A DNA stretch of 64,000 nucleotides, taken from sequence record MN850635.1. The stretch is one strand, 5' to 3'. A model generated the notes under the pieces. The model was not told the origin of the DNA and ran no database searches. It saw nothing but the letters and a program-made list of their open reading frames with translations. The first letter of the stretch is position 1; each line of letters opens with the position of its first letter. The DNA comes from Escherichia phage bumzen. Shown in pieces: positions 4,539 to 62,549 of this stretch. Made by a program: the position numbers and the translations under genes.

Positions 4539-4584
4539 TTTCTTTACAGGGGCTGTATAGCCCCTTTTAAGAGGAAAATTTATA

Positions 4585-6939
4585 ATGGCAGATTACAAGT
4601 TGAGTGAATTAAACTCAATTGATACAATTCGTTCAGACGACCTCCTTCATATCAGGGTTAAAAAGAGACCTGAAATGCTGGGTGATGAAGACCGTCGAAT
4701 GACCTATCAAGACTTCTTAGCGTCTTTTAAACTAGAAAGATTTGTCCAGATTGCTGGTAGCACTATGACGGGTGACTTAGGAATTGTCAAGTTACTTTAT
4801 GGTGGTAAGGCAGTATTTGACCCTACAGGTTCTTCTGAGATTACTATGGGGGATGTTTTAAAGGCTTTTAAAATCAATGCAAATGGTCTTAAACTAACTA
4901 TTGCAGATGCTTCAAGGTCTGCAACTGTTTATCATACTCTTAATAAGCCAAGTCCTAATGAACTTGGGATGAGAACTAATGAAGAGAATGATGCAAGATA
5001 CTCAAGATTGGCTGCAAATAACACCTTTAGAGGTACTCAAAATATTCTATCTGATAATGAAACTATTATTGTTAAGAATATTACACAAGGAATGCCGCTG
5101 TATATTCGCGGTCAAGATGCAGATGGTACTAACAGGTGGTATCTAGGTAATGATAACAAAGGTACAGACAATCTTGTTTTAAAAAATGTTAAATCTGGTG
5201 CATATGTAGCTATTTTGGGTAGCTTAATCACTGTGAACAAATCTATCCAGATTACTGGTCAAGTTCAACCTTCTGATTGGTCTAACTTAGATACTAGATA
5301 CTTTACTCAGACAGCAGCTAATCAGAGATTTGCACAGCTAGTTGGTAATAACACCTTCAGGGGTATTAACAATTTTGTAGGAGAGTTCAATATCACCAGA
5401 GATAACGCTGTGCTAGTCGTTAAGAATGCCACTGCTGCAACTGGACTGTACTTGCTGGGGCAGAAGGCTGATGGGACAAACAAGTTCTACTTAGGGACTG
5501 ATGACTCTGATTCTGTAGTTAATCTACATAACTACATCACAAGCACAACCATCTCTTTGTCAAATGTGATTACCACTACTAAGACTGTGAAAATCACTGG
5601 ACAAGTTCAACCTTCAGATTGGACTAACATTGACTCTAGATACATCTCAGCAGGAACTTTGAGTAATCTTGCTAAGTTAAGTGATGTAAACACTTTTAGG
5701 ATTGCACAGATTATTAATCAGAATGGTTCATTGTTACAGCTAAAGAATACTACACAAGACAAAGAGCTATACTTTGCTGGTCATAATGCTGATGGTGTTA
5801 GAAGGTGGTACATTGGGAATGGGGAACCATCCAACCCAGAAAGATTTATTATCCATAACGACAGAACTGCAACTACGATTTATATGCAAGATGATTTCTT
5901 GCTGAATAAAACTGTTAAAATTACTGGTCAAGTTCAACCATCTGATTGGTCTAACTTAGATGCTAGATACTTCACTCAGGCAGCAGCTAATCAGAGATTT
6001 ATGTATGCAGGTTCTACAGGAGAAGCTACAGAGCAGAATGCAGATGGTGTGGCATGGAACGCTAAAACAGGCTTATATAATGTAACCTCAACAAATGCTG
6101 ATTACACAGCACTTGTGTTTCAAATGTATCAGGGGGTGACCTCTTCTACTGCCTGTGCGCAATTAAAGTTCCAGTATAAAAACGGTGGAATGTGGTACAG
6201 AACATCTGTAGCTAGTAAAGGTTTTGAAGCTAAGTGGTCTAAGGTTTACACAGAGGCTCAGAAACCAACCCCTTCAGAGCTTGGTGCATACACTAAAGCA
6301 GAAACTGACCAGAAGATTGCACAGGCAGTAAGTGACTCTACAGACCTTAATAAAATCTACCCAGTAGGTATTGTAACGTGGTTTAACAGTAATGTTAACC
6401 CTAATACAGCACTGCCTGGTCTAACTTGGACGTACCTTAACAATGGTGTTGGTAGAACTATCAGAATTGCAGCAGCAAACGGTTCAGATGTTGCTACAAC
6501 AGGTGGTTCAGACTCTGTGACGTTAGCTGTTGGTAACTTACCATCACACACTCACAGTTTTTCTGCTACCACTTCATCTTTTGACTACGGAACAAAAAAC
6601 ACTAACACGACTGGTGCTCACGCTCACTCTGTAAGTGGCTCTACTTCATCTGCTGGTAACCACAACCATTCCATTTCGTGGATTGGTCAGAACTCTAAAC
6701 ACTACTCTGGTGGTGGTGGTGGTAGTATTGGTGTAGGACCGGGTTACACCGATGCTAACGGTGCTCACACCCACTCTGTAAGTGGTACTGCCGCTTCTGC
6801 TGGTAACCATGCTCACAGTGTAGGTATCGGTGCTCACACCCATACAGTTAGTGGTAACACTGGTGGTACAGGTTCTGGTTCAGCATTTAGTGTTACTAAC
6901 CAGTTCTACAAGTTAATGGCTTGGGTAAGAACTGCTTAA
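4585..6939 (+). CDS. tail fiber protein (long paralog) with internal tandem repeats and His-x-His tip
   Basis: 784 aa; three ~110 aa repeats each ending [15 protein letters not shown]; C-terminal GAH.HSV repeats and shared C-terminal motif. Confidence 0.75.
4987..5980 (+). repeat. three in-frame tandem ~330 bp repeats inside long tail fiber gene
   Basis: Near-identical DNA segments at ~5255, ~5593 and ~5923 (attactggtcaagttcaacc.tc.gattgg.ctaac). Confidence 0.7.
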
Positions 6940-7590: not shown

Positions 7591-7620
7591 AAGGCTCCCG
7601 TAAAAAGGAGCCTTTTTTGT
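7591..7620. terminator. bidirectional rho-independent terminator between convergent blocks
   Basis: aaggctcc-cgtaaaa-ggagcctt followed by tttttt; A/T runs on both sides. Confidence 0.7.
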
Positions 7621-15613: not shown

Positions 15614-16147
15614 TCAACTTAGTTTTGCAAACTCTCCGTGGAGTTTAATAGCAGCTTCACAGTAAGCTTTATGGGCTTCTTCAGGGGTGTCATGGTGACC
15701 TAAAAACATCTTCTTACCTTTATAACTTATCTGTGCGACCCACTTACCAGACTTCTTCTTAAGACTTACACCCTTGTACCCAGATTTATTGGTGACTGGT
15801 TTACCTTTATTCCAAGCACTTTGAAAATCATCTGCTTCCCTTAAGTTTACAATCCTGTTGTCAAGTGAGTCTCCGTTGATATGGTCAATGATACCTTTTG
15901 GCATCTTGCCATACACGTAAAGCCATGCGAGTCTGTGTGCTTTATGTGCTTTCTTGTCAAAATAGATACTAATCTGTTTATGACCACTTGAATCAGTCTG
16001 GATATTACCTGCCACCTTTCCTGCATAATTACTGTTAAAAACACTAACAGCTCTTGATTTACCTTCTCTACGAAGCCAAGTAAAGACCCCTGTTTCGGGG
16101 TCATAGTGCAGCAGCTCCTTTAAACGTTTTTGTAAAATTAAATCCAT
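15614..16147 (-). CDS. HNH homing endonuclease
   Basis: 177 aa; paralog of 25743-26243 (shared LHYDPETGVFTW, HRLAW, IDHINGD..DNR..NLR, SGYKGVS); sits beside DNA polymerase gene. Confidence 0.7.
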   Translation of the reverse strand: MDLILQKRLKELLHYDPETGVFTWLRREGKSRAVSVFNSNYAGKVAGNIQTDSSGHKQISIYFDKKAHKAHRLAWLYVYGKMPKGIIDHINGDSLDNRIVNLREADDFQSAWNKGKPVTNKSGYKGVSLKKKSGKWVAQISYKGKKMFLGHHDTPEEAHKAYCEAAIKLHGEFAKLS

Positions 16148-16150
16148 TAA

Positions 16151-18880
16151 TCAATGTACCTCATACCAGCTCTTACCAACCTTTGCTGTACCAGTTACAA
16201 GTGTTTCTTTCCTCAAACCTAAGTTTTTTGAAGCTTGTCCATACATCCAGTCAGCAATTGCTTTCATATCATGTGTCATACCCTCTGGACATTCCCAACT
16301 ATTTTCATCGTGATATGCCAGAAGTAACCTTGCTCCGATAGCTGGTTTTCGAGCATTCAGTTTTGTCAGGCCATCTTCACAGGCTTTTCTTGCTGCTAGG
16401 TTGATGGCCTCATTCTGAATCTGTGCTTCCGAACTCATCAGGAGGTAGTTCAGTAGTTTATGTGGAGATTTGCACCATATCCATGCTCCAGCGACCCTGA
16501 TATAACCACCTTTAGCAATTGAAGAATTCTTCCCAAAAACCTCTTCCAGAGCCTTTTTAGACGCCTTAAAATCGGCTTCTAAACTATCAAGTAACTTCTT
16601 AATCTTTGGCAGACGCATATAGTAAGTTTGTTTAGTCAATGCACCTTCTTCCGTAGATGATGCCTTGATAGTTTTTGCAAACTTCTCGTCTCCGGCTCCA
16701 AATAACAGGGCGTAGATGCCATTTTTGCTCTTCTTACGGCCTTTTGTAATCTCGTGAAGAAGTTCCTCATCCTGTGTCTCCCTACAACGAACAATATCTT
16801 CTTCCTTGTTCAGACCAAAGTAAATACTGTTCAGTGTATGCGCATCAGTCCCTGTGTAGACTTCATAGAGGTCGTTCTCAGCATCATAACGAAGATACTT
16901 GTCAGTTTCTGGATTAAGATACTTATCGAGATGCTTGCAATAGTATCTGCCATCCTCTTGCTTAGTGAACTCTACTGACTCTTTACCCTCAGTTACCGCT
17001 TTAGTGAAGTCTTCATCACCCATAAAGTTACAAAGAAGAACTAGCTGTGCAGAGTTCTGGTCAACTGAAACGATATTAGTACCTTCCTCGCAAATCCAAA
17101 CCTCCCTCATAGGTGCTCCATAGACAGCAGCACCAGACGGTACGTTTACAATACCATATTGTGTCATACGTCCAGTTGAAGTACCAAACACCATTGCACC
17201 AGCACTAAGGCGACCATCAGGACGAATCTGGTTCAACCAACCTTTTTCATCATCCTTTGAGTTCTCAATAGTTCTGCGTCTGTGCATCAAAGTATAGTAC
17301 TTAGCAATCTTCTGTCCAAGCTCACCTTCAATCGTATCATAAGATGACTCAGTAAGTTTTGGTGAAGTACGGATTAAGCAAGGCTCAAGCAAATCTGTGT
17401 ATTTCTTCACAGACCAGTTATGCTCAATGTACTGGACACCTTCATGTTCAACATAACTTAAACCACATCGTTCCACCATCTCCTGCCACTTAGGATGTTT
17501 TGTAATCATCTTTTTATTGTCTTTGAAACGACAAACTTTGACAGGGCGACCGTCTGAGTCTTTCTTGTAGTTCCAGTCATCTGGAATCCAACCAACTGAT
17601 TTCAAGTAGTCTTTAACAACTGCTACCTGAGTCATACGAGAAACTTCAAACTCAATTGGTGTATATGGTGCATCAATCAAACCTGTGTAGCGACTTGACT
17701 CAAGTTCAAAGTGGTTAACAACGTGGCTGTTATAGTACTTCACAGTTTTGACTGTTTTTACTGGCTTCCAGTCTTTGCATTTCTTACCAATCTTTGCATT
17801 CAACTCATTGCAAATTGCACGAGCATCCTTCATTGCTACAAAACCTTCCTTGTACTCTTCACCAGTTACAGAGTTGGTTGGTGTATAGCAATTCCTTTTT
17901 TCAATGTTAAAAATCTTTGTAGTTGGCTTACCAAATGGCTTGATTTCATATGTCTGCATCTCACCGTTACGTACCTGCTGACGGTACTTCGTCTTAGGGT
18001 ACTTGGTAATTCTCTTCAGTCCATCTGCATGACCAAATGTTTCAACATACTCATTCCAAGCCCTTGCAAACTCTTCTCCAGTGACTTTACCTTTGGTCTT
18101 AATAGTTGGAGGAAGATGTGGTTCAACCTCTGAAGCAAGCTCATTAGTCAACTTGTCAAGTTCCTTTACATGGAACTCCATAAGCTCTTTGTCAGCTTTC
18201 CAACCATTGATAGCTTGCTGGCTCATCCAGAAAGATGTCTCTTTAGCTCGCATGTAGGTTTCATAAGTGTCTATGCCACACTTCTTAAGCTTGAGATACT
18301 CATTATCAAGTGCCCGTTTAGTTTTGGCGTTAATACGGATATCTTCTACAACACGAGTGAAGATTTCTGCATTCCACACACCCCAATGCTCAATCTCTGG
18401 CTTACGAACACCAACACGAGCACCCCATGCAGCCAAGCCATGAGCACCTTTATAACCCTTTGGGGTTGGTCTATCCATCCACTGAACACGAGACTGGATA
18501 AGAGAGTCCTGAAAGAAATTACTCCACGGTTTACACTTTGGATTATCAAAGTTCCATAAATCAGGTGCAATGTGATTGAAAACCCACCAGTCATAACCGA
18601 GACCATTATGGATGCAAAGACGTTTTGCCTTTAACGCAAATTCAACACCTTCACGTAAACCACCTTTGATGTACTTGGTATACTTGTGACCGAGGATAGG
18701 CTCATCTGTAAAGACCCATACAGGTGGCTCTTCATCGTCAGATTTATAGTCTGCGAAAGCCATTACGTGCACTTTAGTGAACTCAAGGAGTAAACCATCA
18801 GTTTCTGTATCACCAACCAAATGTAAGTTTTTAAAATCTACGTTTTCCATTTTTACTCCCTCTAAAATCATTAACCTCAT
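16151..18880 (-). CDS. DNA polymerase, family A, with 3'-5' exonuclease domain
   Basis: 909 aa; N-terminal exo motif VGDTETDGL; motif C-like LLLAYHDEN; motif A-like DQNSAQL. Confidence 0.85.
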   Translation of the reverse strand: MRLMILEGVKMENVDFKNLHLVGDTETDGLLLEFTKVHVMAFADYKSDDEEPPVWVFTDEPILGHKYTKYIKGGLREGVEFALKAKRLCIHNGLGYDWWVFNHIAPDLWNFDNPKCKPWSNFFQDSLIQSRVQWMDRPTPKGYKGAHGLAAWGARVGVRKPEIEHWGVWNAEIFTRVVEDIRINAKTKRALDNEYLKLKKCGIDTYETYMRAKETSFWMSQQAINGWKADKELMEFHVKELDKLTNELASEVEPHLPPTIKTKGKVTGEEFARAWNEYVETFGHADGLKRITKYPKTKYRQQVRNGEMQTYEIKPFGKPTTKIFNIEKRNCYTPTNSVTGEEYKEGFVAMKDARAICNELNAKIGKKCKDWKPVKTVKTVKYYNSHVVNHFELESSRYTGLIDAPYTPIEFEVSRMTQVAVVKDYLKSVGWIPDDWNYKKDSDGRPVKVCRFKDNKKMITKHPKWQEMVERCGLSYVEHEGVQYIEHNWSVKKYTDLLEPCLIRTSPKLTESSYDTIEGELGQKIAKYYTLMHRRRTIENSKDDEKGWLNQIRPDGRLSAGAMVFGTSTGRMTQYGIVNVPSGAAVYGAPMREVWICEEGTNIVSVDQNSAQLVLLCNFMGDEDFTKAVTEGKESVEFTKQEDGRYYCKHLDKYLNPETDKYLRYDAENDLYEVYTGTDAHTLNSIYFGLNKEEDIVRCRETQDEELLHEITKGRKKSKNGIYALLFGAGDEKFAKTIKASSTEEGALTKQTYYMRLPKIKKLLDSLEADFKASKKALEEVFGKNSSIAKGGYIRVAGAWIWCKSPHKLLNYLLMSSEAQIQNEAINLAARKACEDGLTKLNARKPAIGARLLLAYHDENSWECPEGMTHDMKAIADWMYGQASKNLGLRKETLVTGTAKVGKSWYEVH

Positions 18881-23798: not shown

Positions 23799-24656
23799 AT
23801 GTCTAAAGTTGTTAAAATGAAAGCTCCGGTAGAGAAGTACAACGGTACTGAACGTCAAACTCTGCGTTACCTGCTGAAAGATGTCTGGTTTTATTACCTG
23901 AACACTTCACCACGTCCGGGGAAAGGTAAGTCTATTGATAAGAAATTCCCAGGCAAAGACTGTAACTACAGCGTATCAATTCTGGCAGAAGACGGTAACA
24001 AACTCTTTAAAGAGTTTACTAAGTCTAAGAAGAACCCAGAAGGTTGGGATAAAGTTACTACTGAAGCAGTTGATGCAGATGACTTCGAAGAGAAGTTTGG
24101 TTGTAAACCACCTTTTGAAGCAGACACTTACTACATCTTGAAAGTAAGTCGTGCAGCAGCTTATAAAGATGGTGCTGTATGGACAGCTAAACAGTCATTC
24201 CCTGTAATGCTGATTGAAGAAGTAAATGGTAAGCGTGTAGCTGTTAAGCAGCCGATGAAGAAAATCAAAGCTCAAGCATCTGATAAACATGAAGATGACA
24301 AGAACTATGATGTAATTCATCCAGATATCGCAGTTGGTAATGGTTCTTTTGGTAGTGTGATTCTTTCTACTCACTTCTACACTTTTGAGAACAATGTTCT
24401 GACAAAACCTATTCAGGAACAGTTTATCATTGATACTCTTGTACCTTACACTGGTGGTAACGGTGCTAATGGTGAACCTGAACTTGATGAAGATGAACTG
24501 GCTATGCTTGGTCTTGATGGTGTTGAAGATAACGGTGAAATCACTGAAGAAGACGCAACAGACCATAAACCTTCGAATGCTTCTGATGATGGTGATGATG
24601 AAGATTTGCCAGACCCAGATGACGAAGAAGATGAAGACTTCGATACAGAAGACTAA
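23799..24656 (+). CDS. single-stranded DNA-binding protein
   Basis: 285 aa with strongly acidic C-terminal tail (DDGDDEDLPDPDDEEDEDFDTED); located between primase-helicase and exonuclease. Confidence 0.5.
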   Translation: MSKVVKMKAPVEKYNGTERQTLRYLLKDVWFYYLNTSPRPGKGKSIDKKFPGKDCNYSVSILAEDGNKLFKEFTKSKKNPEGWDKVTTEAVDADDFEEKFGCKPPFEADTYYILKVSRAAAYKDGAVWTAKQSFPVMLIEEVNGKRVAVKQPMKKIKAQASDKHEDDKNYDVIHPDIAVGNGSFGSVILSTHFYTFENNVLTKPIQEQFIIDTLVPYTGGNGANGEPELDEDELAMLGLDGVEDNGEITEEDATDHKPSNASDDGDDEDLPDPDDEEDEDFDTED

Positions 24657-24718
24657 TCTCTAAAAGTTACTTTAAAGCCCTGTACTTAGTATGGGGCTTT
24701 TTCATATGGAGAGCCATA

Positions 24719-25765
24719 ATGGAGAAGTACACATTAACAAAACTTCCCGATTCAGTTACACATGTTTTTATTGACTCTGATAGTATTGCCTATAAAGGTG
24801 CTTGTGTAGTTGAGAAAGCAAAATATAAATATGTCAATAAACTCACAGCAGAAGAATCTGAGCCATTTGATAATGCTAAAGATGCTGCAAGATGGTTAGC
24901 AGACCAGAGAATCCTTGTGGAAGAACTTGGCCTAGCATTTGATGAAGATGAATGGGAAAGACAGACTTGGAAAGAAGCTAAGAGTGAAAAAGAAGCTATC
25001 ATGGCTACTCAACAGGTTCTTCAGGAATGGCTTAAGGTTGTTGGTAAAGAGAGAACTTGGGTAGGTTACTTAACAGAGAAAGGTGTGCATAAACATAAAG
25101 ACATTAAAGGTCTTGAGCACCAATATCAAGGTAACCGTAAAGATGCTGTCACACCAACACACTTAGTTGCTTGTCGTGAATATCTTCTGTCAAGACCAGA
25201 GTTCAAACTCTTAAGGGGAGGCTTCGAAGCCGATTCAATCGTAATTGCTAAAGCTGAAAAGATGGGTAAGAAAGCTGCTCTTATGAGTATTGACAAAGAC
25301 CTTCGACAAGCTGAAGGGACTTATTGTATTGATATGACTTATGAAAAATCACCACTAATTTTTATCGCTGATAATAATGTTGGTAATATCTGGGATTGCC
25401 CTATCAAATCAAAACCAAAAGCTGCAAAAACAGTTGGTGTAGGTTTTAAATTCTTGTGTTATCAGGCTGTTGCTGGAGATAATGCAGACAACTACTTCGG
25501 CCTAAAAGGTGCTGGTAAAGTAGCTGTGATGAATGCTTTAGAGGGTAAAGAGACCTACAAAGAGTGTCTTGACGCTATCTATGAACTTTATGCTAAAAAA
25601 GACTCTTATACCTATGTGTCATGGGATGGACAGACCGTTACAAAGACGCCGTTAGAGTTAATGGAACAGCATTTCTTCCTAGCTTATCAAGAGCGAAATA
25701 AATCAGATATTTTTTCATTTGAAAAGTATGGTTGGACTCCAAATGTTGACTCAGCAGATACTTAA
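24719..25765 (+). CDS. 5'-3' exonuclease (T7 gp6-like)
   Basis: N-terminal acidic cluster HVFIDSDSIAY; replication-module context. Confidence 0.55.
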   Translation: MEKYTLTKLPDSVTHVFIDSDSIAYKGACVVEKAKYKYVNKLTAEESEPFDNAKDAARWLADQRILVEELGLAFDEDEWERQTWKEAKSEKEAIMATQQVLQEWLKVVGKERTWVGYLTEKGVHKHKDIKGLEHQYQGNRKDAVTPTHLVACREYLLSRPEFKLLRGGFEADSIVIAKAEKMGKKAALMSIDKDLRQAEGTYCIDMTYEKSPLIFIADNNVGNIWDCPIKSKPKAAKTVGVGFKFLCYQAVAGDNADNYFGLKGAGKVAVMNALEGKETYKECLDAIYELYAKKDSYTYVSWDGQTVTKTPLELMEQHFFLAYQERNKSDIFSFEKYGWTPNVDSADT

Positions 25766-26243
25766 AGAATATCTACACTATGACCCCGAAACAGGGGTCT
25801 TTACGTGGATAAAGAAATCAGCTAAAAGAACAGTTATAGGTTCCATTGCAGGTACACCACATAAGCGAGGTTATATTAGGATAAAAATTAAAAGAAAACC
25901 CTATATGGCTCATGATTTAGCAATCCTGTACACAGACGGTTTCCTACCTAACAGAGTAGACCATCGAAACGGTATTACTAATGATAATCGGAGATTAAAT
26001 CTAAGGGTTTGCACACAAGCTGAAAACTCTTGGAATAGAAGAACACACTCCAACAACACATCTGGAGTTAAGGGTGTATCTTTCTATAAGGCTAACCAAA
26101 AATGGAAGGCCAGAGTTATGACACACGGAGTATCTCACTTTCTGGGGTATTTTGACAGTATTGAAGATGCCAAAGATGCAGTCACAAAGAAAAGAGAAGA
26201 ACTACATAAAGAGTTTTCAAATCACGGAGAAGCTTATGAATGA
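25743..26243 (+). CDS. HNH homing endonuclease
   Basis: Paralog of 15614-16147; start moved to internal Met aligning with paralog; overlaps end of exonuclease gene. Confidence 0.7.
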   Translation: MLTQQILKEYLHYDPETGVFTWIKKSAKRTVIGSIAGTPHKRGYIRIKIKRKPYMAHDLAILYTDGFLPNRVDHRNGITNDNRRLNLRVCTQAENSWNRRTHSNNTSGVKGVSFYKANQKWKARVMTHGVSHFLGYFDSIEDAKDAVTKKREELHKEFSNHGEAYE

Positions 26244-26737
26244 AGATTAAAGGATTTGGCAATTGCCCTACCTACGGTCATTGGGTATCTTTATGTGGGG
26301 AAGTTGACCCCACTAAACATTTTGGCTTTGTCTATTTAGTACACTGTAAGAAGACTGGACAGTATTATATCGGAAAGAAACAGTTTAACAGTGTGACCAA
26401 AAGAAAAGTTGCTGGGAAGACTCGGAAGAAGATAGTCACTAAGGAAAGTGATTGGATGACTTATGAGACTTCTTCTGAGTATATTAAAAAAGATATTGAG
26501 AGTTTTGGAAAAGAATTTTTTGACTTTTACATTATTCAGACCTACTACACAAAAGGTGGCCTAGTCTATGGTGAAGCAAACCTTCAACATAAATTCGATG
26601 TAATGACAAAAAGGATTGACTCTAAGCTCAGACTCTTCTACAATGCCAATATTGCAGCAATTAAGTTTATCACTAAAGAAACTTATGAAGATGCTGAAAA
26701 AAGAATCCATAAGGTAATGAAAGCAAATTGTGCTTGA
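26240..26737 (+). CDS. putative GIY-YIG endonuclease
   Basis: FVYLVHCKKTGQYYIGKK resembles GIY-(9-11 aa)-YIG spacing; tandem with HNH gene. Confidence 0.45.
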   Translation: MKIKGFGNCPTYGHWVSLCGEVDPTKHFGFVYLVHCKKTGQYYIGKKQFNSVTKRKVAGKTRKKIVTKESDWMTYETSSEYIKKDIESFGKEFFDFYIIQTYYTKGGLVYGEANLQHKFDVMTKRIDSKLRLFYNANIAAIKFITKETYEDAEKRIHKVMKANCA

Positions 26738-26743
26738 TAACTA

Positions 26744-27007
26744 TTGAGAGAGAATAAAATGTTTAACAAAAGTAAAGCTGTGAGTCATGTAGCAAAAGTT
26801 GACAGCAAGATTGAAGAACTTGAGCGCATCCTTGCAAATGCTAGAGAGTCAATAATTAAAGAAGTTGAAGCTGTTGAGTCTCAAATGCAGCACCTAATGC
26901 TTAAACGTCAAGAGCTACGTGAACATCTAGAATATATTGAAACACGAGAGCTAAAGGTTAACAAATATTTTAAGGAGTCCGAATGTTTAACTCAAGAGAA
27001 TCAGTAA
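26744..27007 (+). CDS. hypothetical coiled-coil protein
   Basis: 87 aa ORF. Confidence 0.4.
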   Translation: MRENKMFNKSKAVSHVAKVDSKIEELERILANARESIIKEVEAVESQMQHLMLKRQELREHLEYIETRELKVNKYFKESECLTQENQ

Positions 27008-27738
27008 AAAACTGGAACCTTCGTTGTGGAAACACTCAAAAGCAACCTTACAGTGATGAGTATTGGGAATCTTTAAAATCTCAATCTCTGTGTATGCTTG
27101 AAGAAGCAAAAGAGCTTGTAAAAGCAATTGAAGAGAAAGACCCCATTGAGACACTGGATGCTCAGGCAGATTTGCAATATGTTCTTGACGGCTTGATTTA
27201 TCTGTCACAACATGACCATAACGGTGCTATGAAAGCTGTTTGCCGTAATAATGACCTGAAGTACACAGATGACTATGAAGAAGCTTTAAAACGTCTTGCA
27301 GACATTGAAAAGCGTACTGGTCAAGAGTGTATTATCAGAATGTCAGTAGTTGATGGTAAAGAGTGGTATGCTATTGTTCGTGCAGCCGATGGGAAGATTA
27401 TGAAGCAATCAAATCTCCCTAAAGTACAGCTTGGTGAATACATTGTAGAACTTGAAAGCCAAGAACTTTTTGTGGTAGTATCTGAGACATGCGTTATCTG
27501 CAAAGGTATTGTAGGTAGCTTAAAGGATTTGGGTGTAGATGGTTTTGTAGAAGTTAATCCAATTACCTCTAAAGCAGATAAAGACTTCTGTAAAGAGAAC
27601 GGACTATGGATTGCAGATATTGTCTACTATGATGGTGAGCAGTTCCATGTAACCTCATACCCGAAACTGAATTATGATGCTAATAACCTGAAGTGCTGGT
27701 TAAAAGGGGTTGGTTATAATGGATTCACAGAACATTAA
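26983..27738 (+). CDS. hypothetical protein, possible MazG-like NTP pyrophosphohydrolase domain
   Basis: EEAKELVKAIEE...ETLDAQADLQYVL resembles all-alpha NTP-PPase acidic motifs; weak. Confidence 0.3.
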   Translation: MFNSRESVKNWNLRCGNTQKQPYSDEYWESLKSQSLCMLEEAKELVKAIEEKDPIETLDAQADLQYVLDGLIYLSQHDHNGAMKAVCRNNDLKYTDDYEEALKRLADIEKRTGQECIIRMSVVDGKEWYAIVRAADGKIMKQSNLPKVQLGEYIVELESQELFVVVSETCVICKGIVGSLKDLGVDGFVEVNPITSKADKDFCKENGLWIADIVYYDGEQFHVTSYPKLNYDANNLKCWLKGVGYNGFTEH

Positions 27739-28042
27739 TAAAGAGGGTGTGGCTCAGAAGAGCCACTTCTCAAACTACAATATTTCTATGACGGTGTTTA
27801 TGAATGACCCGTTACTAGAAAAATATGGTGAGACTCCAGATACACTTCTGGACAATGAACAAGTTTTAAAAGCAGTCCTGTACAAATACGGTATTGATAT
27901 TGAGAAAGAGTATTCTTTTGAAATCTGCCAACACAGAAACACTTTTGGTAAAGTTGTGATGGCTCCACTCTTTATGGGCGTAGAAAGGACTGACTATGGC
28001 TGGTTGTATCTGAAAAGAAACTTGGAGAAATACCGTGTCTAA
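27710..28042 (+). CDS. hypothetical protein
   Basis: 110 aa ORF. Confidence 0.4.
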   Translation: MVIMDSQNINKEGVAQKSHFSNYNISMTVFMNDPLLEKYGETPDTLLDNEQVLKAVLYKYGIDIEKEYSFEICQHRNTFGKVVMAPLFMGVERTDYGWLYLKRNLEKYRV

Positions 28043-37345: not shown

Positions 37346-37861
37346 ATGTATCTGTCAAACCTAAAACGTTCTGCTGCAATGTCAGTGCTAAGACTCAGCT
37401 TTGAGGAACGTCAAGAGTTCATTGACTCCCACCAATACGACCCTTCTAACTCCAATCACATGATTCTCTGGAATCGTGGCAGTACTCGTGAAAGAGCACT
37501 ATTCCGTTACTACCCGCATTACACCATAGATAACCTGTATGAATGTTTTGTTGTGAAGAACACCATTACAGTACTTAATAGACTTTGCAGATACACAGGT
37601 AGTCAATCCTTCACATTAGGCCACCACAAACCTGTTACAAAGGGTGGTGAGCATCACTGTGCAAACTGGTTTATCCAGACTAAACTTGATAATCAGAATC
37701 AAGGAGATAGCCTTCTAAGCACCCCTAAGATGACCTATGAAGAGCAAGAGAAATATATCAAAAATAATATGCCAGAGGTGCTTGACAACAACTATACAGA
37801 TTTGGCAATATCTCTCCTGTTGAAGTTCGAGACAGTTTATAGGGCAACTTACAATGGCTAA
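37346..37861 (+). CDS. HNH endonuclease
   Basis: GHHKPVTKGGEHHCANWFIQTKLDNQNQG matches the HH...N...N pattern of HNH nucleases. Confidence 0.5.
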   Translation: MYLSNLKRSAAMSVLRLSFEERQEFIDSHQYDPSNSNHMILWNRGSTRERALFRYYPHYTIDNLYECFVVKNTITVLNRLCRYTGSQSFTLGHHKPVTKGGEHHCANWFIQTKLDNQNQGDSLLSTPKMTYEEQEKYIKNNMPEVLDNNYTDLAISLLLKFETVYRATYNG

Positions 37862-38132
37862 AGAGAAGTGGGAAATTTTACCATTAGTGAGTGAAGGTGG
37901 TAATGGTTGTGAGATGTACATGATACGTGGTCATGTTCCAGAACCAATTGCACTTGAGATGGTAAACAATTTTACAGATGGCTCTTACAAAGATTTAGGA
38001 GAGCCAACTATAAAGCATCAATGGGTCAAACCTGTACCAGACAGCACAGGTAACTGTAGTGTACTTTATCACGTTGTAGACCCTGCAAAATGCAAATCTG
38101 CAATGGCAGTAACAAACATAACCTTTGATTGA
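37854..38132 (+). CDS. hypothetical protein
   Basis: 92 aa ORF. Confidence 0.35.
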   Translation: MAKEKWEILPLVSEGGNGCEMYMIRGHVPEPIALEMVNNFTDGSYKDLGEPTIKHQWVKPVPDSTGNCSVLYHVVDPAKCKSAMAVTNITFD

Positions 38133-38145
38133 GAGAGAGAAAACT

Positions 38146-39027
38146 ATGAAAACTGTTATTGAAGTCGTTGTCACCGCACAAGAGAAATTCTTCCACACAG
38201 AAAAATTTAATATCATCCAATTCCCATCTGGAGAAATTGGTGGAAACTTCTCTGAAGATTTTGTTAAGTTTACTGAGCGTAATGCTGGTAAGATTGACAA
38301 TGTTATACTTACTGTGCAGGGATATGATAAAGATACACTGTTTGCATTAGCTTTGGCTAAGGATGCCGTTGACAGTCTTGTTCCACATAAATCAGCGATG
38401 AAAACCGTTGTTTTCGGGTTCTTACCGAATGCTCGATATGACCGACATATGTTCAAAGGTGATTCAGCAGCACTGAAAGCTTTTGCCAACCTCGTTAATG
38501 CAATGGGCTTTGATGCAGTATGTGCTCTTGACCCTCACAGCAATGTTGCAGAAAACTTATTTAAGTGCTTTCAGGGCATGAAGCAAAAAGATGTAGCAGC
38601 ACACTTTGCAAGTGACCCACGCATTGATTTCTTGGTAGCCCCAGATGCAGGTGCAGCTAAGAAGACTGAAGAGACTGCTAAAGAGGTGGATAAACCATAT
38701 ATCACAATGTCTAAAATGCGTAACCTTAAGACTGGTGAAATTACTGGTATGCGAATCCTTGATGATGTTGATTTGACCGATAAAACTGTTATGATTCTCG
38801 ACGATATCTGTGATGGCGGTCGAACCTTCATAGAAGCAGCTAAACATCTTCGTGAAGCAGGTGCAAAACGTGTGGAACTCTATGTAACTCATGGCATTTT
38901 CTCTAAAGGTGTTGAAAGCTTACTTGACAATGGTATTGACCATATCTACACTACAAACACTTTAGGTGAAGCTAAAGACCGTGGCTTAACACATTATGGC
39001 CAAGTTACTGTAGCAACCATTGATTGA
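38146..39027 (+). CDS. ribose-phosphate pyrophosphokinase family protein (Prs-like; possible ADPR-pyrophosphate synthetase of NARP1)
   Basis: PRPP-binding signature VMILDDICDGGRT; start set at first ATG (track ORF begins 38125). Confidence 0.75.
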   Translation: MKTVIEVVVTAQEKFFHTEKFNIIQFPSGEIGGNFSEDFVKFTERNAGKIDNVILTVQGYDKDTLFALALAKDAVDSLVPHKSAMKTVVFGFLPNARYDRHMFKGDSAALKAFANLVNAMGFDAVCALDPHSNVAENLFKCFQGMKQKDVAAHFASDPRIDFLVAPDAGAAKKTEETAKEVDKPYITMSKMRNLKTGEITGMRILDDVDLTDKTVMILDDICDGGRTFIEAAKHLREAGAKRVELYVTHGIFSKGVESLLDNGIDHIYTTNTLGEAKDRGLTHYGQVTVATID

Positions 39028-39036
39028 AACTTTATA

Positions 39037-39058
39037 GGGGCTTGAAAGCCCCATTTTG
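39037..39058 (+). other. GC hairpin (ggggcttgaaagcccc) between Prs-like and NAMPT-like genes
   Basis: Perfect 6 bp stem followed by attttg; weak terminator or attenuator/processing site. Confidence 0.4.
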
Positions 39059-39072
39059 AGAGAGATTAAAAG

Positions 39073-40854
39073 ATGACTAAATCACTTTATGCAGTACCAG
39101 CAGGTTTAAACGCAGATGCTTACAAATCTGGTCATGTTTACCAGTATCCTAGTGCAACAGATTACTTGATGTTCAACCTGACACCACGTAGCGACAAATG
39201 GTTTAACAGCCCTTTAGCAATTGATGGTGTAGTGGCTTTTGGTATTCAACGTTTTGTTAAAGATTACTTGATAGACCACTGGAACGCCACTTTCTTTGAA
39301 CGTGATAAAAAAGAAGCAATTGACGAAATCTTAGAAGTTATGAATGGTGTTCTGGGGAAAGATGCTATCGGTCGAGAGCATTGGGAAGCACTTCACGACT
39401 TAGGTTATCTACCAGTTGAAGTGTACGCTGTAGAAGAAGGCACAGTTGTCCCGATGCGTGTCCCAATGATTGTCTTCCAGAACACTGTTTCAGGTTTCCA
39501 TTGGGTAGCAGGTTATCTAGAAGACGCTTTCTCTGCTGAGATTTGGAAGGCTTGCACCATTGCAACTATTGCATTGCACTACAAACGTATCTGTAAGAAG
39601 TGGGCTGACCTCACTTGCGACAACGACTTGCATTTACCTTATCAGTGCCATGACTTTGCTATGCGTGGTATGTCCGGCTTTACTGATGACGCATTCAACG
39701 CTGTAGGACACTTAACCAGCTTTAAAGGGACTGATAGCTTCCCTGCTGTATACACGGCTAAACGTATCTATGGGCAGACCTATCCAATCTCTGATATTGG
39801 AAGCTCTGTACCAGCCACTGAACACTCTGTAATGTGTGCAAACATTGCTTGGGAAGGTGGTAACGAGTTGGTTGAAGAAGAAAGACGATTTAAAGGTGAG
39901 TTACAAACCTTCCGTCGTTTCTTAACAGAAACTTACCCAACTGGTATTGCAAGTATTGTTTCAGACACTTATAACTTCTGGAGAACTGTGTCAGAAATCT
40001 TACCAGCACTTCGTAAAGAAATTATGGAACGTGATGGTAAGCTGGTAATTCGCCCTGACTCTGGAGACCCTGTACATATTGTCACAGGCTATAAAGCAAT
40101 CCACTTAGAGTGTGCTAAGAAGGCTTATTATGAGCACCTAAGCAAGCTGGAAGCTAGTGACACAATGTTGAATGCTGTTCTGAACATGAAGCTTGAAAAC
40201 ATCAACTATGGTATTGCTGGATGGCTACTGTCAGAAGGCTACGAAATGGTTGTTGACAAAGAAGACTTTGAAGTTGCTGATACAGTGATGTTGAAAAATG
40301 CTTATATGGTTGGCTCTGCAAACGTTGTAACACGTCCTGTAGCAGAGATTGATGGAGCTATTAAGACCCTGTACAACATCTTCGGAGGGACTATTAACTC
40401 TAAAGGGTTTAAGGTACTGGATGAGCACATCGGCCTTATCTATGGTGACTCTATCACGCTGGAACGTGCAAACGAAATCCTGAAGCGTCTGTATGAAATG
40501 GGTTTTGCAAGCTCTAACGTAGTGTTTGGTGTAGGCTCTTACACTTACCAGTACATGACTCGTGACACCTTTGCATTTGCTGTCAAAGCAACTCTTGCAA
40601 GCATTGGTGGTAAAGAGATTATGCTTGCAAAAGACCCTAAAACAGATAGTGGTGTTAAGAAATCTGCCTTTGGTGGTGTAGCACCTATGTGGGATGGTGA
40701 TAAGCTGAAAGCTGTAGATGGCTATGGATTCCAGAGTTTTGCAGATGTACTTGACCACCAAGCTTGTGCTTTACGTTTAGTCTTTAGCGACTCTGAGCAG
40801 TTCGGTTATACAACTCTTGGAGATATTCGAAATAATATTGACAAGCAGCTTTAA
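39073..40854 (+). CDS. nicotinamide phosphoribosyltransferase family protein (NAMPT-like; possible Namat of NARP1)
   Basis: 593 aa, recognised as NAMPT/NAPRTase-type by overall sequence character; adjacent to Prs-like gene. Confidence 0.7.
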   Translation: MTKSLYAVPAGLNADAYKSGHVYQYPSATDYLMFNLTPRSDKWFNSPLAIDGVVAFGIQRFVKDYLIDHWNATFFERDKKEAIDEILEVMNGVLGKDAIGREHWEALHDLGYLPVEVYAVEEGTVVPMRVPMIVFQNTVSGFHWVAGYLEDAFSAEIWKACTIATIALHYKRICKKWADLTCDNDLHLPYQCHDFAMRGMSGFTDDAFNAVGHLTSFKGTDSFPAVYTAKRIYGQTYPISDIGSSVPATEHSVMCANIAWEGGNELVEEERRFKGELQTFRRFLTETYPTGIASIVSDTYNFWRTVSEILPALRKEIMERDGKLVIRPDSGDPVHIVTGYKAIHLECAKKAYYEHLSKLEASDTMLNAVLNMKLENINYGIAGWLLSEGYEMVVDKEDFEVADTVMLKNAYMVGSANVVTRPVAEIDGAIKTLYNIFGGTINSKGFKVLDEHIGLIYGDSITLERANEILKRLYEMGFASSNVVFGVGSYTYQYMTRDTFAFAVKATLASIGGKEIMLAKDPKTDSGVKKSAFGGVAPMWDGDKLKAVDGYGFQSFADVLDHQACALRLVFSDSEQFGYTTLGDIRNNIDKQL

Positions 40855-40869
40855 AAGTATATGATAAGA

Positions 40870-40890
40870 GGCTCCTACGGGAGCCTTTTT
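40870..40890 (+). terminator. rho-independent terminator
   Basis: ggctcc-tacg-ggagcc then ttttt. Confidence 0.7.
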
Positions 40891-43801: not shown

Positions 43802-43831
43802 TTGACAAGGGGCTTTGAAGCCCCTTAGAAT
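43802..43831 (+). promoter_or_regulatory. sigma70-like promoter with embedded GC hairpin
   Basis: TTGACA - 18 bp (aggggctttgaagcccct) - TAGAAT upstream of 43876 gene. Confidence 0.45.
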
Positions 43832-46793: not shown

Positions 46794-46818
46794 AGGCTCC
46801 TTCGGGAGCCTTTTTCAT
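46794..46818 (+). terminator. rho-independent terminator with UUCG loop
   Basis: aggctcc-ttcg-ggagcct then ttttc. Confidence 0.7.
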
Positions 46819-55340: not shown

Positions 55341-55392
55341 TCGACGCAGCGGGGCTAAATAGCCCAGATACCTTTATACAGCCCCTTAAATG

Positions 55393-55420
55393 GGGCTTTT
55401 TGCATCCTATCGAATCCTTA
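55393..55420 (+). terminator. rho-independent terminator ending the plus-strand array
   Basis: cagcccc-ttaaat-ggggct then ttttt. Confidence 0.6.
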
Positions 55421-60750: not shown

Positions 60751-60776
60751 AATAAAAAAGGCTCCCGAAGGAGCCT
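60751..60776 (-). terminator. hairpin with UUCG loop followed by U-tract (minus strand)
   Basis: Minus strand aggctcc-ttcg-ggagcct then tttttt, between endolysin and next gene. Confidence 0.6.
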
Positions 60777-62502: not shown

Positions 62503-62549
62503 TAAATATCCTTATAAATAGTTAAAGGGGCATCAGCCCCTATTCACAC

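Follow-up and report, generated by a model that had tools for sequence, protein, structure and literature searches.

We analysed 64,000 nucleotides (nt) of Escherichia phage bumzen (sequence record MN850635.1; this whole stretch is called the window below), which hold four nuclease-like genes: an HNH-AP2 gene next to a 5'-3' exonuclease gene, a second HNH-AP2 gene next to the DNA polymerase gene polA, a GIY-YIG gene, and a further gene with an HNH-like motif (the third gene). We consider it likely that the two HNH-AP2 genes are mobile homing cassettes, each bearing an early hairpin that is likely an attenuator, and that the GIY-YIG gene and the third gene are fixed and not currently mobile. 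The first-pass annotation of this DNA had taken such free-standing endonuclease genes to be mobile selfish elements. This holds for the two HNH-AP2 genes, whose presence is polymorphic among relatives, and not for the GIY-YIG gene and the third gene, which are universal. Overall, the finding is real but ordinary, with the earlier interpretation standing for two of the four genes.

The window belongs to a Felix O1-like myovirus of the genus Felixounavirus (Ounavirinae), and its bases 24000-28000 are 99.6% identical to those of Escherichia phage garuso, with about 258 phage records matching this region. The garuso record already labels the genes as "5'-3' exonuclease", "HNH homing endonuclease" and "GIY-YIG homing endonuclease", and six HNH endonuclease genes have been reported in Felix O1 (PMC3185647). 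In a phage group that has been well sampled, these genes are thus annotated but still uncharacterised. The two HNH-AP2 genes, likewise uncharacterised, belong to an endonuclease family that is very common in phages: more than 2000 phage records contain homologues. For the exonuclease locus we compared 28 IMG/VR contigs, four GenBank phages and the window (33 loci, some of which duplicate one another); 30 loci were compared for the polymerase slot and 28 for the third gene. Pfam cut-offs were 24.8 bits for HNH_3, 33.3 bits for AP2 and 25 bits for SegE_GIY-YIG. Within the window, tblastn and PHROG scans of 20 other mid-sized open reading frames (ORFs) gave no further HNH or GIY-YIG copies, and an Rfam scan at gathering thresholds gave no match.

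The features of the exonuclease slot are as follows.

24719-25765, plus strand: 5'-3' exonuclease gene, 348 amino acids (PHROG 107 exonuclease, 1.5e-62; garuso annotation).
25677-25731, plus strand: recoded stretch of ~55 nt at the 3' end of the exonuclease gene, the left part of the mobile cassette (garuso/momo mismatches).
25743-26243, plus strand: free-standing endonuclease gene of the HNH_3/AP2 type (Pfam HNH_3, PHROG 99).
26240-26737, plus strand: single-domain GIY-YIG (SegE-type) nuclease gene, 165 amino acids (Pfam SegE_GIY-YIG, 98.7 bits).

Among the 33 exonuclease loci, the HNH gene is present in 15 and absent from 18, and its alleles are 98-100%, 83% or 50-59% identical to the window protein. 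Garuso, which carries the gene, and phage momo, which lacks it, form a near-isogenic pair: they show 0 mismatches over ~1200 nt upstream of the recoded tract, 17 mismatches in the 55 nt beside the insertion (window 25677-25731), and then a net 492-nt indel, after which come a few mismatches and renewed near identity. Genomes with the HNH gene encode an exonuclease of 348 amino acids ending in ...KYGWTPNV(D/N)..., and genomes without it one of 346 amino acids ending in ...(KYNW/KYGW)EPxMNED, whose gene overlaps the GIY-YIG start codon. Which C-terminal allele a genome has agrees with the presence or absence of HNH in all 32 scorable loci (the tail of phage EC6 was not read), and the length of the exonuclease match, 348 versus 341-344 residues, tracks HNH presence in 33 of 33. 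Distant genera share the empty junction, which is therefore probably ancestral. Read from these alignments, the pattern is the classic signature of a free-standing homing-endonuclease cassette that carries a recoded copy of its target (cf. PMC2988022), and by analogy with such systems the tract at 25677-25731 is a putative cleavage-resistant version of that target. The first-pass annotation had proposed a comparison of insertion sites with endonuclease-free relatives, and for this slot the comparison returned sharp boundaries, patchy presence and, in the recoded 55 nt, a target-site signature.

The gene itself is laid out as first described, starting inside the 3' end of the exonuclease gene and followed by the GIY-YIG gene, both ORFs having Pfam matches. 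Three starts are possible, at 25719 (TTG), 25728 (ATG) and 25743 (ATG), with the stop at 26243; since all of them precede 25765, the HNH ORF begins within the exonuclease gene and overlaps its last 23-47 nt, depending on the start. The GIY-YIG ORF overlaps the HNH stop codon by ATGA. The HNH protein matches HNH_3 at 31.1 bits and PHROG 99 ("HNH endonuclease") at 4e-71, and aligns over its full length with AP2-positive homologues. On alignment with I-HmuI (PDB 1U3E), its D-H, N and N residues correspond to D74/H75, N87 (structural) and N96 (metal-binding), and all four are kept, so that a check of catalytic residues, likewise suggested at first pass, came out in favour of the enzyme here. The ratio of nonsynonymous to synonymous substitution rates (dN/dS) is 0.065 against the 83%-identical allele. 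Between the nearer alleles of the HNH genes it is 0.07-0.15; this purifying selection indicates that the HNH proteins are functional. Separately, in locus L018 (5066-5521) a stop codon cuts the HNH ORF immediately ahead of PETG in the conserved N-terminal motif, which could be decay or a sequencing error. GC-rich sites of the kind bound by AP2 domains were considered as cleavage targets in the empty alleles and set aside: the sole one nearby is a hairpin in the GIY-YIG gene, which is identical in the window, garuso (with HNH) and momo (without) and is therefore unable to discriminate the two kinds of genome.

The second HNH-AP2 gene lies on the other strand.

16151-18880, minus strand: family A DNA polymerase gene polA, 909 amino acids, uninterrupted in the window (Pfam DNA_pol_A).
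15614-16147, minus strand: free-standing HNH_3 + AP2 endonuclease gene (Pfam HNH_3, 54.5 bits, 9e-15; AP2, 48.1 bits, 1.4e-12).
15614-15700 (approximate), minus strand: slot-specific conserved 3' end of the polymerase-slot HNH alleles, running into a downstream TTGACA element.

This gene had been described as abutting the DNA polymerase gene, and it does: it starts 3 nt after the polA stop codon, passes the cut-offs for both domains and matches PHROG 99 at 5e-72. It is present in 18 of the 30 loci and absent from 12, with alleles that are 98-100%, 84%, 73% and 47-53% identical to that of the window. The cassette bounds are sharp, running from the polA stop (TGA TTA / ATG...) to ...CTAAG / TTGACAAGG, with a net insertion of ~527 nt. 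The last ~60-85 nt of the alleles are almost identical (87-100% over the last ~60 nt), and their bodies share 47-53% amino-acid identity.

PolA itself is interrupted after residue 724 in several relatives (window ~16708/16709, codon 724/725). In locus L061 the interruption (5611-5894) is a 270-nt group I intron (Rfam RF00028, 62 bits). In loci L048-L051 and L053 it is an insert of ~800 nt (5672-6478 in L048) with an ORF of 160 amino acids and a DHDH...CHNCN motif, which, from the motif, looks endonuclease VII-like; the downstream polymerase exon in these loci is only 82% identical to that of the window. Another HNH-AP2 slot lies directly downstream of prs (ribose-phosphate pyrophosphokinase) in six of 28 relatives (L065, L068, L069, L073, L074 and L078) and is empty in the window (39027-39073; prs 38125-39027). 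The window's prs allele (38125-39027) is 94-97% identical to that of three relatives and 76-81% to that of the other 25, and the genes adjacent to prs are 90-100% identical in many relatives; the divergence of prs is a sign of local mosaicism.

Such mosaicism raises the question of whether the presence and absence of the HNH genes reflect ordinary modular recombination and deletion, the HNH proteins serving the phage, for instance in inter-phage competition or DNA processing, instead of promoting their own spread. We think this very unlikely. Insertions occur at the same two exact junctions, with sharp boundaries, in many backgrounds and with many unrelated alleles per slot, and the recoded tract lies directly beside the insert in an otherwise identical pair, as is typical of endonuclease-driven gene conversion (PMC2988022). 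Marker exclusion, for its part, itself follows from homing. What modular recombination would account for is the mosaic character of the region, seen in the unusual prs allele and in the contrast of synonymous differences between the window and phage adrianh (given below), the mixed, recombinant exonuclease tails of two HNH-free loci (L026 and L008), and the purifying selection on the HNH genes.

Several points do weigh against reading the two genes as homing cassettes. Polymorphism with divergent flanks could also arise by ordinary mosaic recombination. Domains, polymorphism, boundaries and selection are observed, and from them we infer cleavage and homing. In the exonuclease-slot protein, AP2 scores only 17.6 bits. 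For the polymerase slot, no isogenic pair with and without the gene occurs among the 30 loci, and no target-site signature was found there. In addition, the catalytic-residue check was only partly favourable for the polymerase-slot enzyme: together with its 73-84% identical relatives it keeps the D-H and the N87 equivalent, but has Ser at the N96 position of I-HmuI, with an invariant Asn three residues further on. As Ser replaces the equivalent of the metal-binding Asn96, its activity is less certain, and judging by these residues the enzyme could be a nickase, use another ligand, or be inactive.

The two HNH genes had also been described as close paralogs sharing HYDPETGVFTW at the protein and DNA level. 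The shared DNA is real, and consists of an exact 29-mer, CACTATGACCCCGAAACAGGGGTCTTTAC (0 expected in shuffles); the proteins are only 39% identical (tblastn 3e-32) and so are not close paralogs. We refer to the 29-mer as the island.

25776-25804, plus strand: island of the exonuclease slot, with its hairpin at 25782-25799 (exact match to the polymerase-slot copy).
16080-16108, minus strand: island of the polymerase slot, with its hairpin at 16085-16102 (terminator-like in the scan).
26295-26313, plus strand: GC-rich hairpin GTGGGG-AAGTTGA-CCCCAC, 55 nt into the GIY-YIG ORF (intragenic perfect hairpin).

The island encodes HYDPETGVFT and holds a hairpin, GACCCC-GAAACA-GGGGTC, followed by TTTAC, with a perfect 6-bp stem (five G-C pairs) and a 6-nt loop, located at +39 and +45 in the HNH ORFs. 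The fold of the exonuclease-slot copy (25770-25812) reaches -19.9 kcal/mol, with z = -5.2 against shuffles, and that of the polymerase-slot copy z = -3.2. Across 12 Ounavirinae alleles less than 85% identical to one another, the codons GAC, CCC, ACA, GGG and GTC are almost monomorphic, whereas other conserved four-fold-degenerate positions (Gly, Pro, Val, Ala) in the same alleles use 2-5 codons each. The stem is invariant and the loop varies (GATACA, TTAACA, GACAAA, GAAATA). In pairs of less than 60% overall identity, identity per 30 nt is 83-97% at the island versus 17-60% alongside. About 50 homologues outside the Ounavirinae, on unrelated viral contigs, encode this peptide using all of its synonymous codons, and their folds are mostly weak. 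Since unrelated homologues use all synonymous codons, the constraint on the island acts on nucleotides and is lineage-specific; the idea that the 29-nt identity is a by-product of the conserved peptide YDPETGVFT was rejected on the same codons. Recent gene conversion between slots was rejected as well, no allele body being common to different slots and identity collapsing on both sides of the island.

What might this constraint serve? The window contains about a dozen perfect 6-bp hairpins with at least five G-C pairs, against 1.7 expected, and only three of them in the 64 kb are intragenic, one in each HNH ORF (39 and 45 nt in) and one in the GIY-YIG ORF (55 nt in). The remaining ones are all intergenic (4548-4565, 7593-7612, 39037-39052, 40870-40885, 43808-43825, 46795-46810, 55380-55397, 60760-60775 and 62526-62541) and fall into two recurring types, GGGGCT...AGCCCC and GGCTCC...GGAGCC; with a T run after most of them, these hairpins probably serve the phage as intrinsic terminators. 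In T4, mobE and segF have intrinsic terminators at the 5' end of the ORF, and ~30% of transcripts stop at that of mobE (PMC2988022). As these terminators stand in the same place, a weak terminator or attenuator is favoured for the island too, and by this analogy its hairpin is most likely a weak internal terminator or attenuator that would curb expression of the nuclease by read-through. A further possible effect is that a hairpin is restored near the stop codon of the upstream gene.

Some of the evidence runs counter to attenuation, which is deduced here from an observed nucleotide constraint. The U-tract of the island hairpin is poor (UCUUUAC), and the terminator scan flags only the polymerase-slot copy. 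The stem shows no covariation, because it never varies. Hairpin thresholds were set after the element had been seen, and with a looser threshold others appear just past stop codons inside the next ORF. At the homologous position, the alleles of the slot after prs show no more than a weaker hairpin in a shifted register (GAACC...GGTT). As for the GIY-YIG hairpin, it has one compensatory change, U-A to C-G, in distant relatives, and its stability is not above that of shuffles (z = -0.75).

The island could instead be a DNA site, either an operator to which the HNH protein binds through its AP2 or N-terminal domain (autorepression) or a patch of homology for recombination. Autorepression through an operator has an established precedent in I-TevI (PMC2988022), AP2 domains of such endonucleases are reported to favour GC-rich DNA (PMC10448857), and the island is a GACCCC/GGGGTC palindrome in a genome of 39% G+C. 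However, the AP2 domains of the island-bearing HNH proteins are very different (39-59% identity), and a common operator is for this reason unlikely, unless the conserved N-terminus binds the island. With respect to recombination, alleles of the same slot have conserved 5' and 3' ends around a hypervariable body, as recombination arms would give; yet 29 nt is short for recombination, and since no allele body is common to the slots there is no sign of recent between-slot exchange through the island. The island is also followed by a T-rich tail, placed as in the terminators of T4 mobE and segF. All in all, we regard a DNA site as unlikely and prefer the attenuator.

The GIY-YIG gene presents a different picture. 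In all 33 loci it is found in the same place, with 86-100% identity, even in genera in which the neighbouring gene of 87 amino acids is only 43-49% identical. Copies at least 80% identical are found in 253 phage records; about 258 records match the region, and no empty site was found among them. Against distant orthologues, the proportion of nonsynonymous differences (pN) is ~0.07-0.08, that of synonymous differences (pS) is saturated at 0.69-0.77, and dN/dS is ~0.04, a constraint equal to that on the exonuclease gene and tighter than that on the MazG-like gene (26983-27738). Being universal at one position, the pattern that the first-pass annotation had itself named as arguing against mobility, the gene is not currently mobile, and we read it as a fixed, probably domesticated nuclease.

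The catalytic domain and the fold of a GIY-YIG nuclease are both there. Across 13 homologues, Y32, Y43, G45, E112, N114 and N135, which include the GIY and YIG tyrosines, do not vary, and R62 hardly varies; homologues are 157-180 amino acids long. The Pfam domain spans 21-138 of the 165 residues and leaves one C-terminal helix, with no separate DNA-binding domain in the protein. An hhalign comparison of the family profile with an approximate I-TevI sequence gave a probability of 0.45, which is not significant, and the residue mapping is only a hint; sequence searches of solved structures with the protein, singly and as a profile, gave no useful match. Many records annotate the gene as "NAD synthetase" and others as "homing endonuclease". 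The former is also the label of PHROG 447 and seems to be an error in naming a GIY-YIG nuclease that has spread from record to record. Several hundred records of T4-like cyanophages contain relatives of the protein at 30-38% identity, as do Vibrio, Stenotrophomonas and Sinorhizobium phages. Comparison of the window with adrianh (L003) places a sharp recombination breakpoint at the 3' end of the gene (region 26744-27738): the 87-amino-acid ORF (26744-27007) and the MazG-like gene (26983-27738) are nearly identical in the two phages (pS 0-0.007), and the exonuclease and GIY-YIG genes have pS of 0.3-0.5.

It is conceivable that each of the four genes encodes a selfish homing endonuclease that is active or was so until recently, and that in the sampled lineage the GIY-YIG gene and the third gene have simply become fixed, possibly still homing into relatives outside the sample. 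The GIY-YIG domain is of the SegE type with I-TevI as the nearest structure, and the gene sits in a cluster of endonuclease genes beside an essential gene, as is reported for other phages (PMC10448857). In EC6 (L030, 5495-5987) it is frameshifted, which could be decay after fixation or a sequencing error. Fixed selfish endonuclease genes would be expected to decay, which is at odds with a dN/dS equal to that of the exonuclease gene, and the single-domain protein of 165 amino acids has no DNA-binding domain of the kind used by Seg proteins and I-TevI. With universality at one position across genera, the absence of empty sites and the equally universal third gene (28 of 28 loci), we find this account quite unlikely, and keep to mobility for the two HNH-AP2 genes and fixation for the other two.

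The third gene had been listed as a further HNH-motif gene.

37346-37861, plus strand: conserved core gene of 171 amino acids with an HNH-like H-N-N motif at H93, N107 and N116 (PHROG 3500, unknown function).

Its motif is real and conserved; the protein gives no Pfam HNH match in the window, and its membership of the HNH family is not established. A weak match to the HNH group PHROG 2214 (2e-4) was found, and Pfam scans of 15 close and 13 distant homologues gave only sub-threshold matches (HNH, E-value 0.033; HNH_5, E-value 0.027; both in distant homologues). Against solved structures, neither the single sequence nor a profile gave a useful match (PDB 4H9D, E-value 0.82). The family is very small, with 18 clusters among 1.84 billion proteins and no link to a named family by profile search. 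H93, G100, G101 and N107 are kept in all members down to 22% identity, and P96, N116 and D121 in nearly all. The motif is spaced as H, P at +3, GG at +7/+8, N at +14 and N at +23, which we take to be the canonical HNH arrangement DHxxP...GG...N...H/N. Across these residues a strand-strand-helix (beta-beta-alpha) element is predicted, with a predicted local distance difference test score (pLDDT) of 66. The gene lies at the same position in 28 of 28 loci (73-97% identity), again the pattern named at first pass as speaking against mobility, and is therefore not currently mobile. We regard it as a conserved core gene with a probable divergent H-N-N nuclease motif, and not as a homing endonuclease. 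The N-terminus, LSFEERQEFIDSHQYDPSNSN (37376-37510, residues 11-56), resembles a repeated motif of staphylococcal protein A domains. This likeness was dismissed as a short-motif coincidence, each repeat being non-significant (i-Evalue ~1) and the summed E-value low only through the repetitive target.

A mechanism for the mobile genes can be proposed by analogy with the intronless homing of the T4 seg and mob genes. The cassettes sit just downstream of, and co-oriented with, essential replication genes, the 5'-3' exonuclease and DNA polymerase genes. During co-infection, the HNH enzyme would cut or nick a cassette-free allele near the 3' end of the neighbouring gene, and recombinational repair from the cassette-bearing genome would copy the cassette together with adjoining flank. 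The carrier genome would be shielded by its 55 recoded bases at the 3' end of the exonuclease gene, and the hairpin 39-45 nt into the HNH ORFs would keep down expression of the nuclease by read-through. For the GIY-YIG gene and the third gene, the most likely role is that of housekeeping nucleases of the phage. Two parts of this picture can be joined in a more specific form, which we offer tentatively as a fair possibility still short of our preferred reading: that the island is a cis-regulatory module (attenuator or operator) travelling with Ounavirinae HNH-AP2 cassettes, and that the GIY-YIG gene, now domesticated and possibly essential, encodes a nuclease of the replication module. Selection would then keep the island nucleotides across slots and alleles whose synonymous sites are otherwise saturated, and the GIY-YIG gene would be one of a family that T4-like cyanophages conserve as well, under the wrong name "NAD synthetase".

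The results matter first for annotation. Labels of the GIY-YIG gene differ between Felixounavirus records, some of which also name the third gene as an HNH homing endonuclease; judging by our sequence comparisons, mobile behaviour is probably confined to the two HNH-AP2 genes. As probable gene-conversion hot spots, the 3' ends of the exonuclease and polymerase genes are to be avoided as markers in phylogeny and engineering. A nucleotide-constrained hairpin early in endonuclease ORFs offers a simple model of how a phage may keep down a selfish and potentially toxic nuclease, and in the fixed GIY-YIG gene we see a candidate case of a domesticated nuclease. The current understanding of homing endonucleases is unchanged, the hairpin and the fixed GIY-YIG gene being modest side results.

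Known systems offer close comparisons for each of these genes. Canonical HNH nucleases (PF01844, PDB 4H9D) resemble the third gene in the motif residues it keeps within a predicted beta-beta-alpha element, and differ from it in that it has no zinc-binding cysteines, no significant profile match and a very small family. The GIY-YIG gene is like homing endonucleases of the Seg and I-TevI type in its nuclease domain, but without their DNA-binding domain and their features of mobility. The two HNH-AP2 genes resemble I-HmuI of phage SPO1 in their DH...N...N motif; I-HmuI, however, is intron-encoded and has a different C-terminal DNA-binding region, whereas the window genes are free-standing, and the polymerase-slot enzyme has Ser at the position of Asn96. 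Their architecture is that of the HNH + AP2 homing endonucleases of phages, cyanobacteria and protists, among them the "IPA-HNH" of ICP1 (PMC10448857), with the same N-terminal HNH_3 and C-terminal AP2. The T4 seg and mob genes belong to another phage lineage, mob being HNH without AP2 and seg GIY-YIG; termination and homing have been measured in T4 and are deduced for the window, where the U-tract of the hairpin is poor. They are alike in their genomic behaviour: a cassette between or overlapping conserved genes, patchy in close relatives, with a diverged flank (PMC2988022), and, in mobE and segF, intrinsic terminators at the 5' end of the ORF that match the position of the hairpin in the HNH ORFs of the window.

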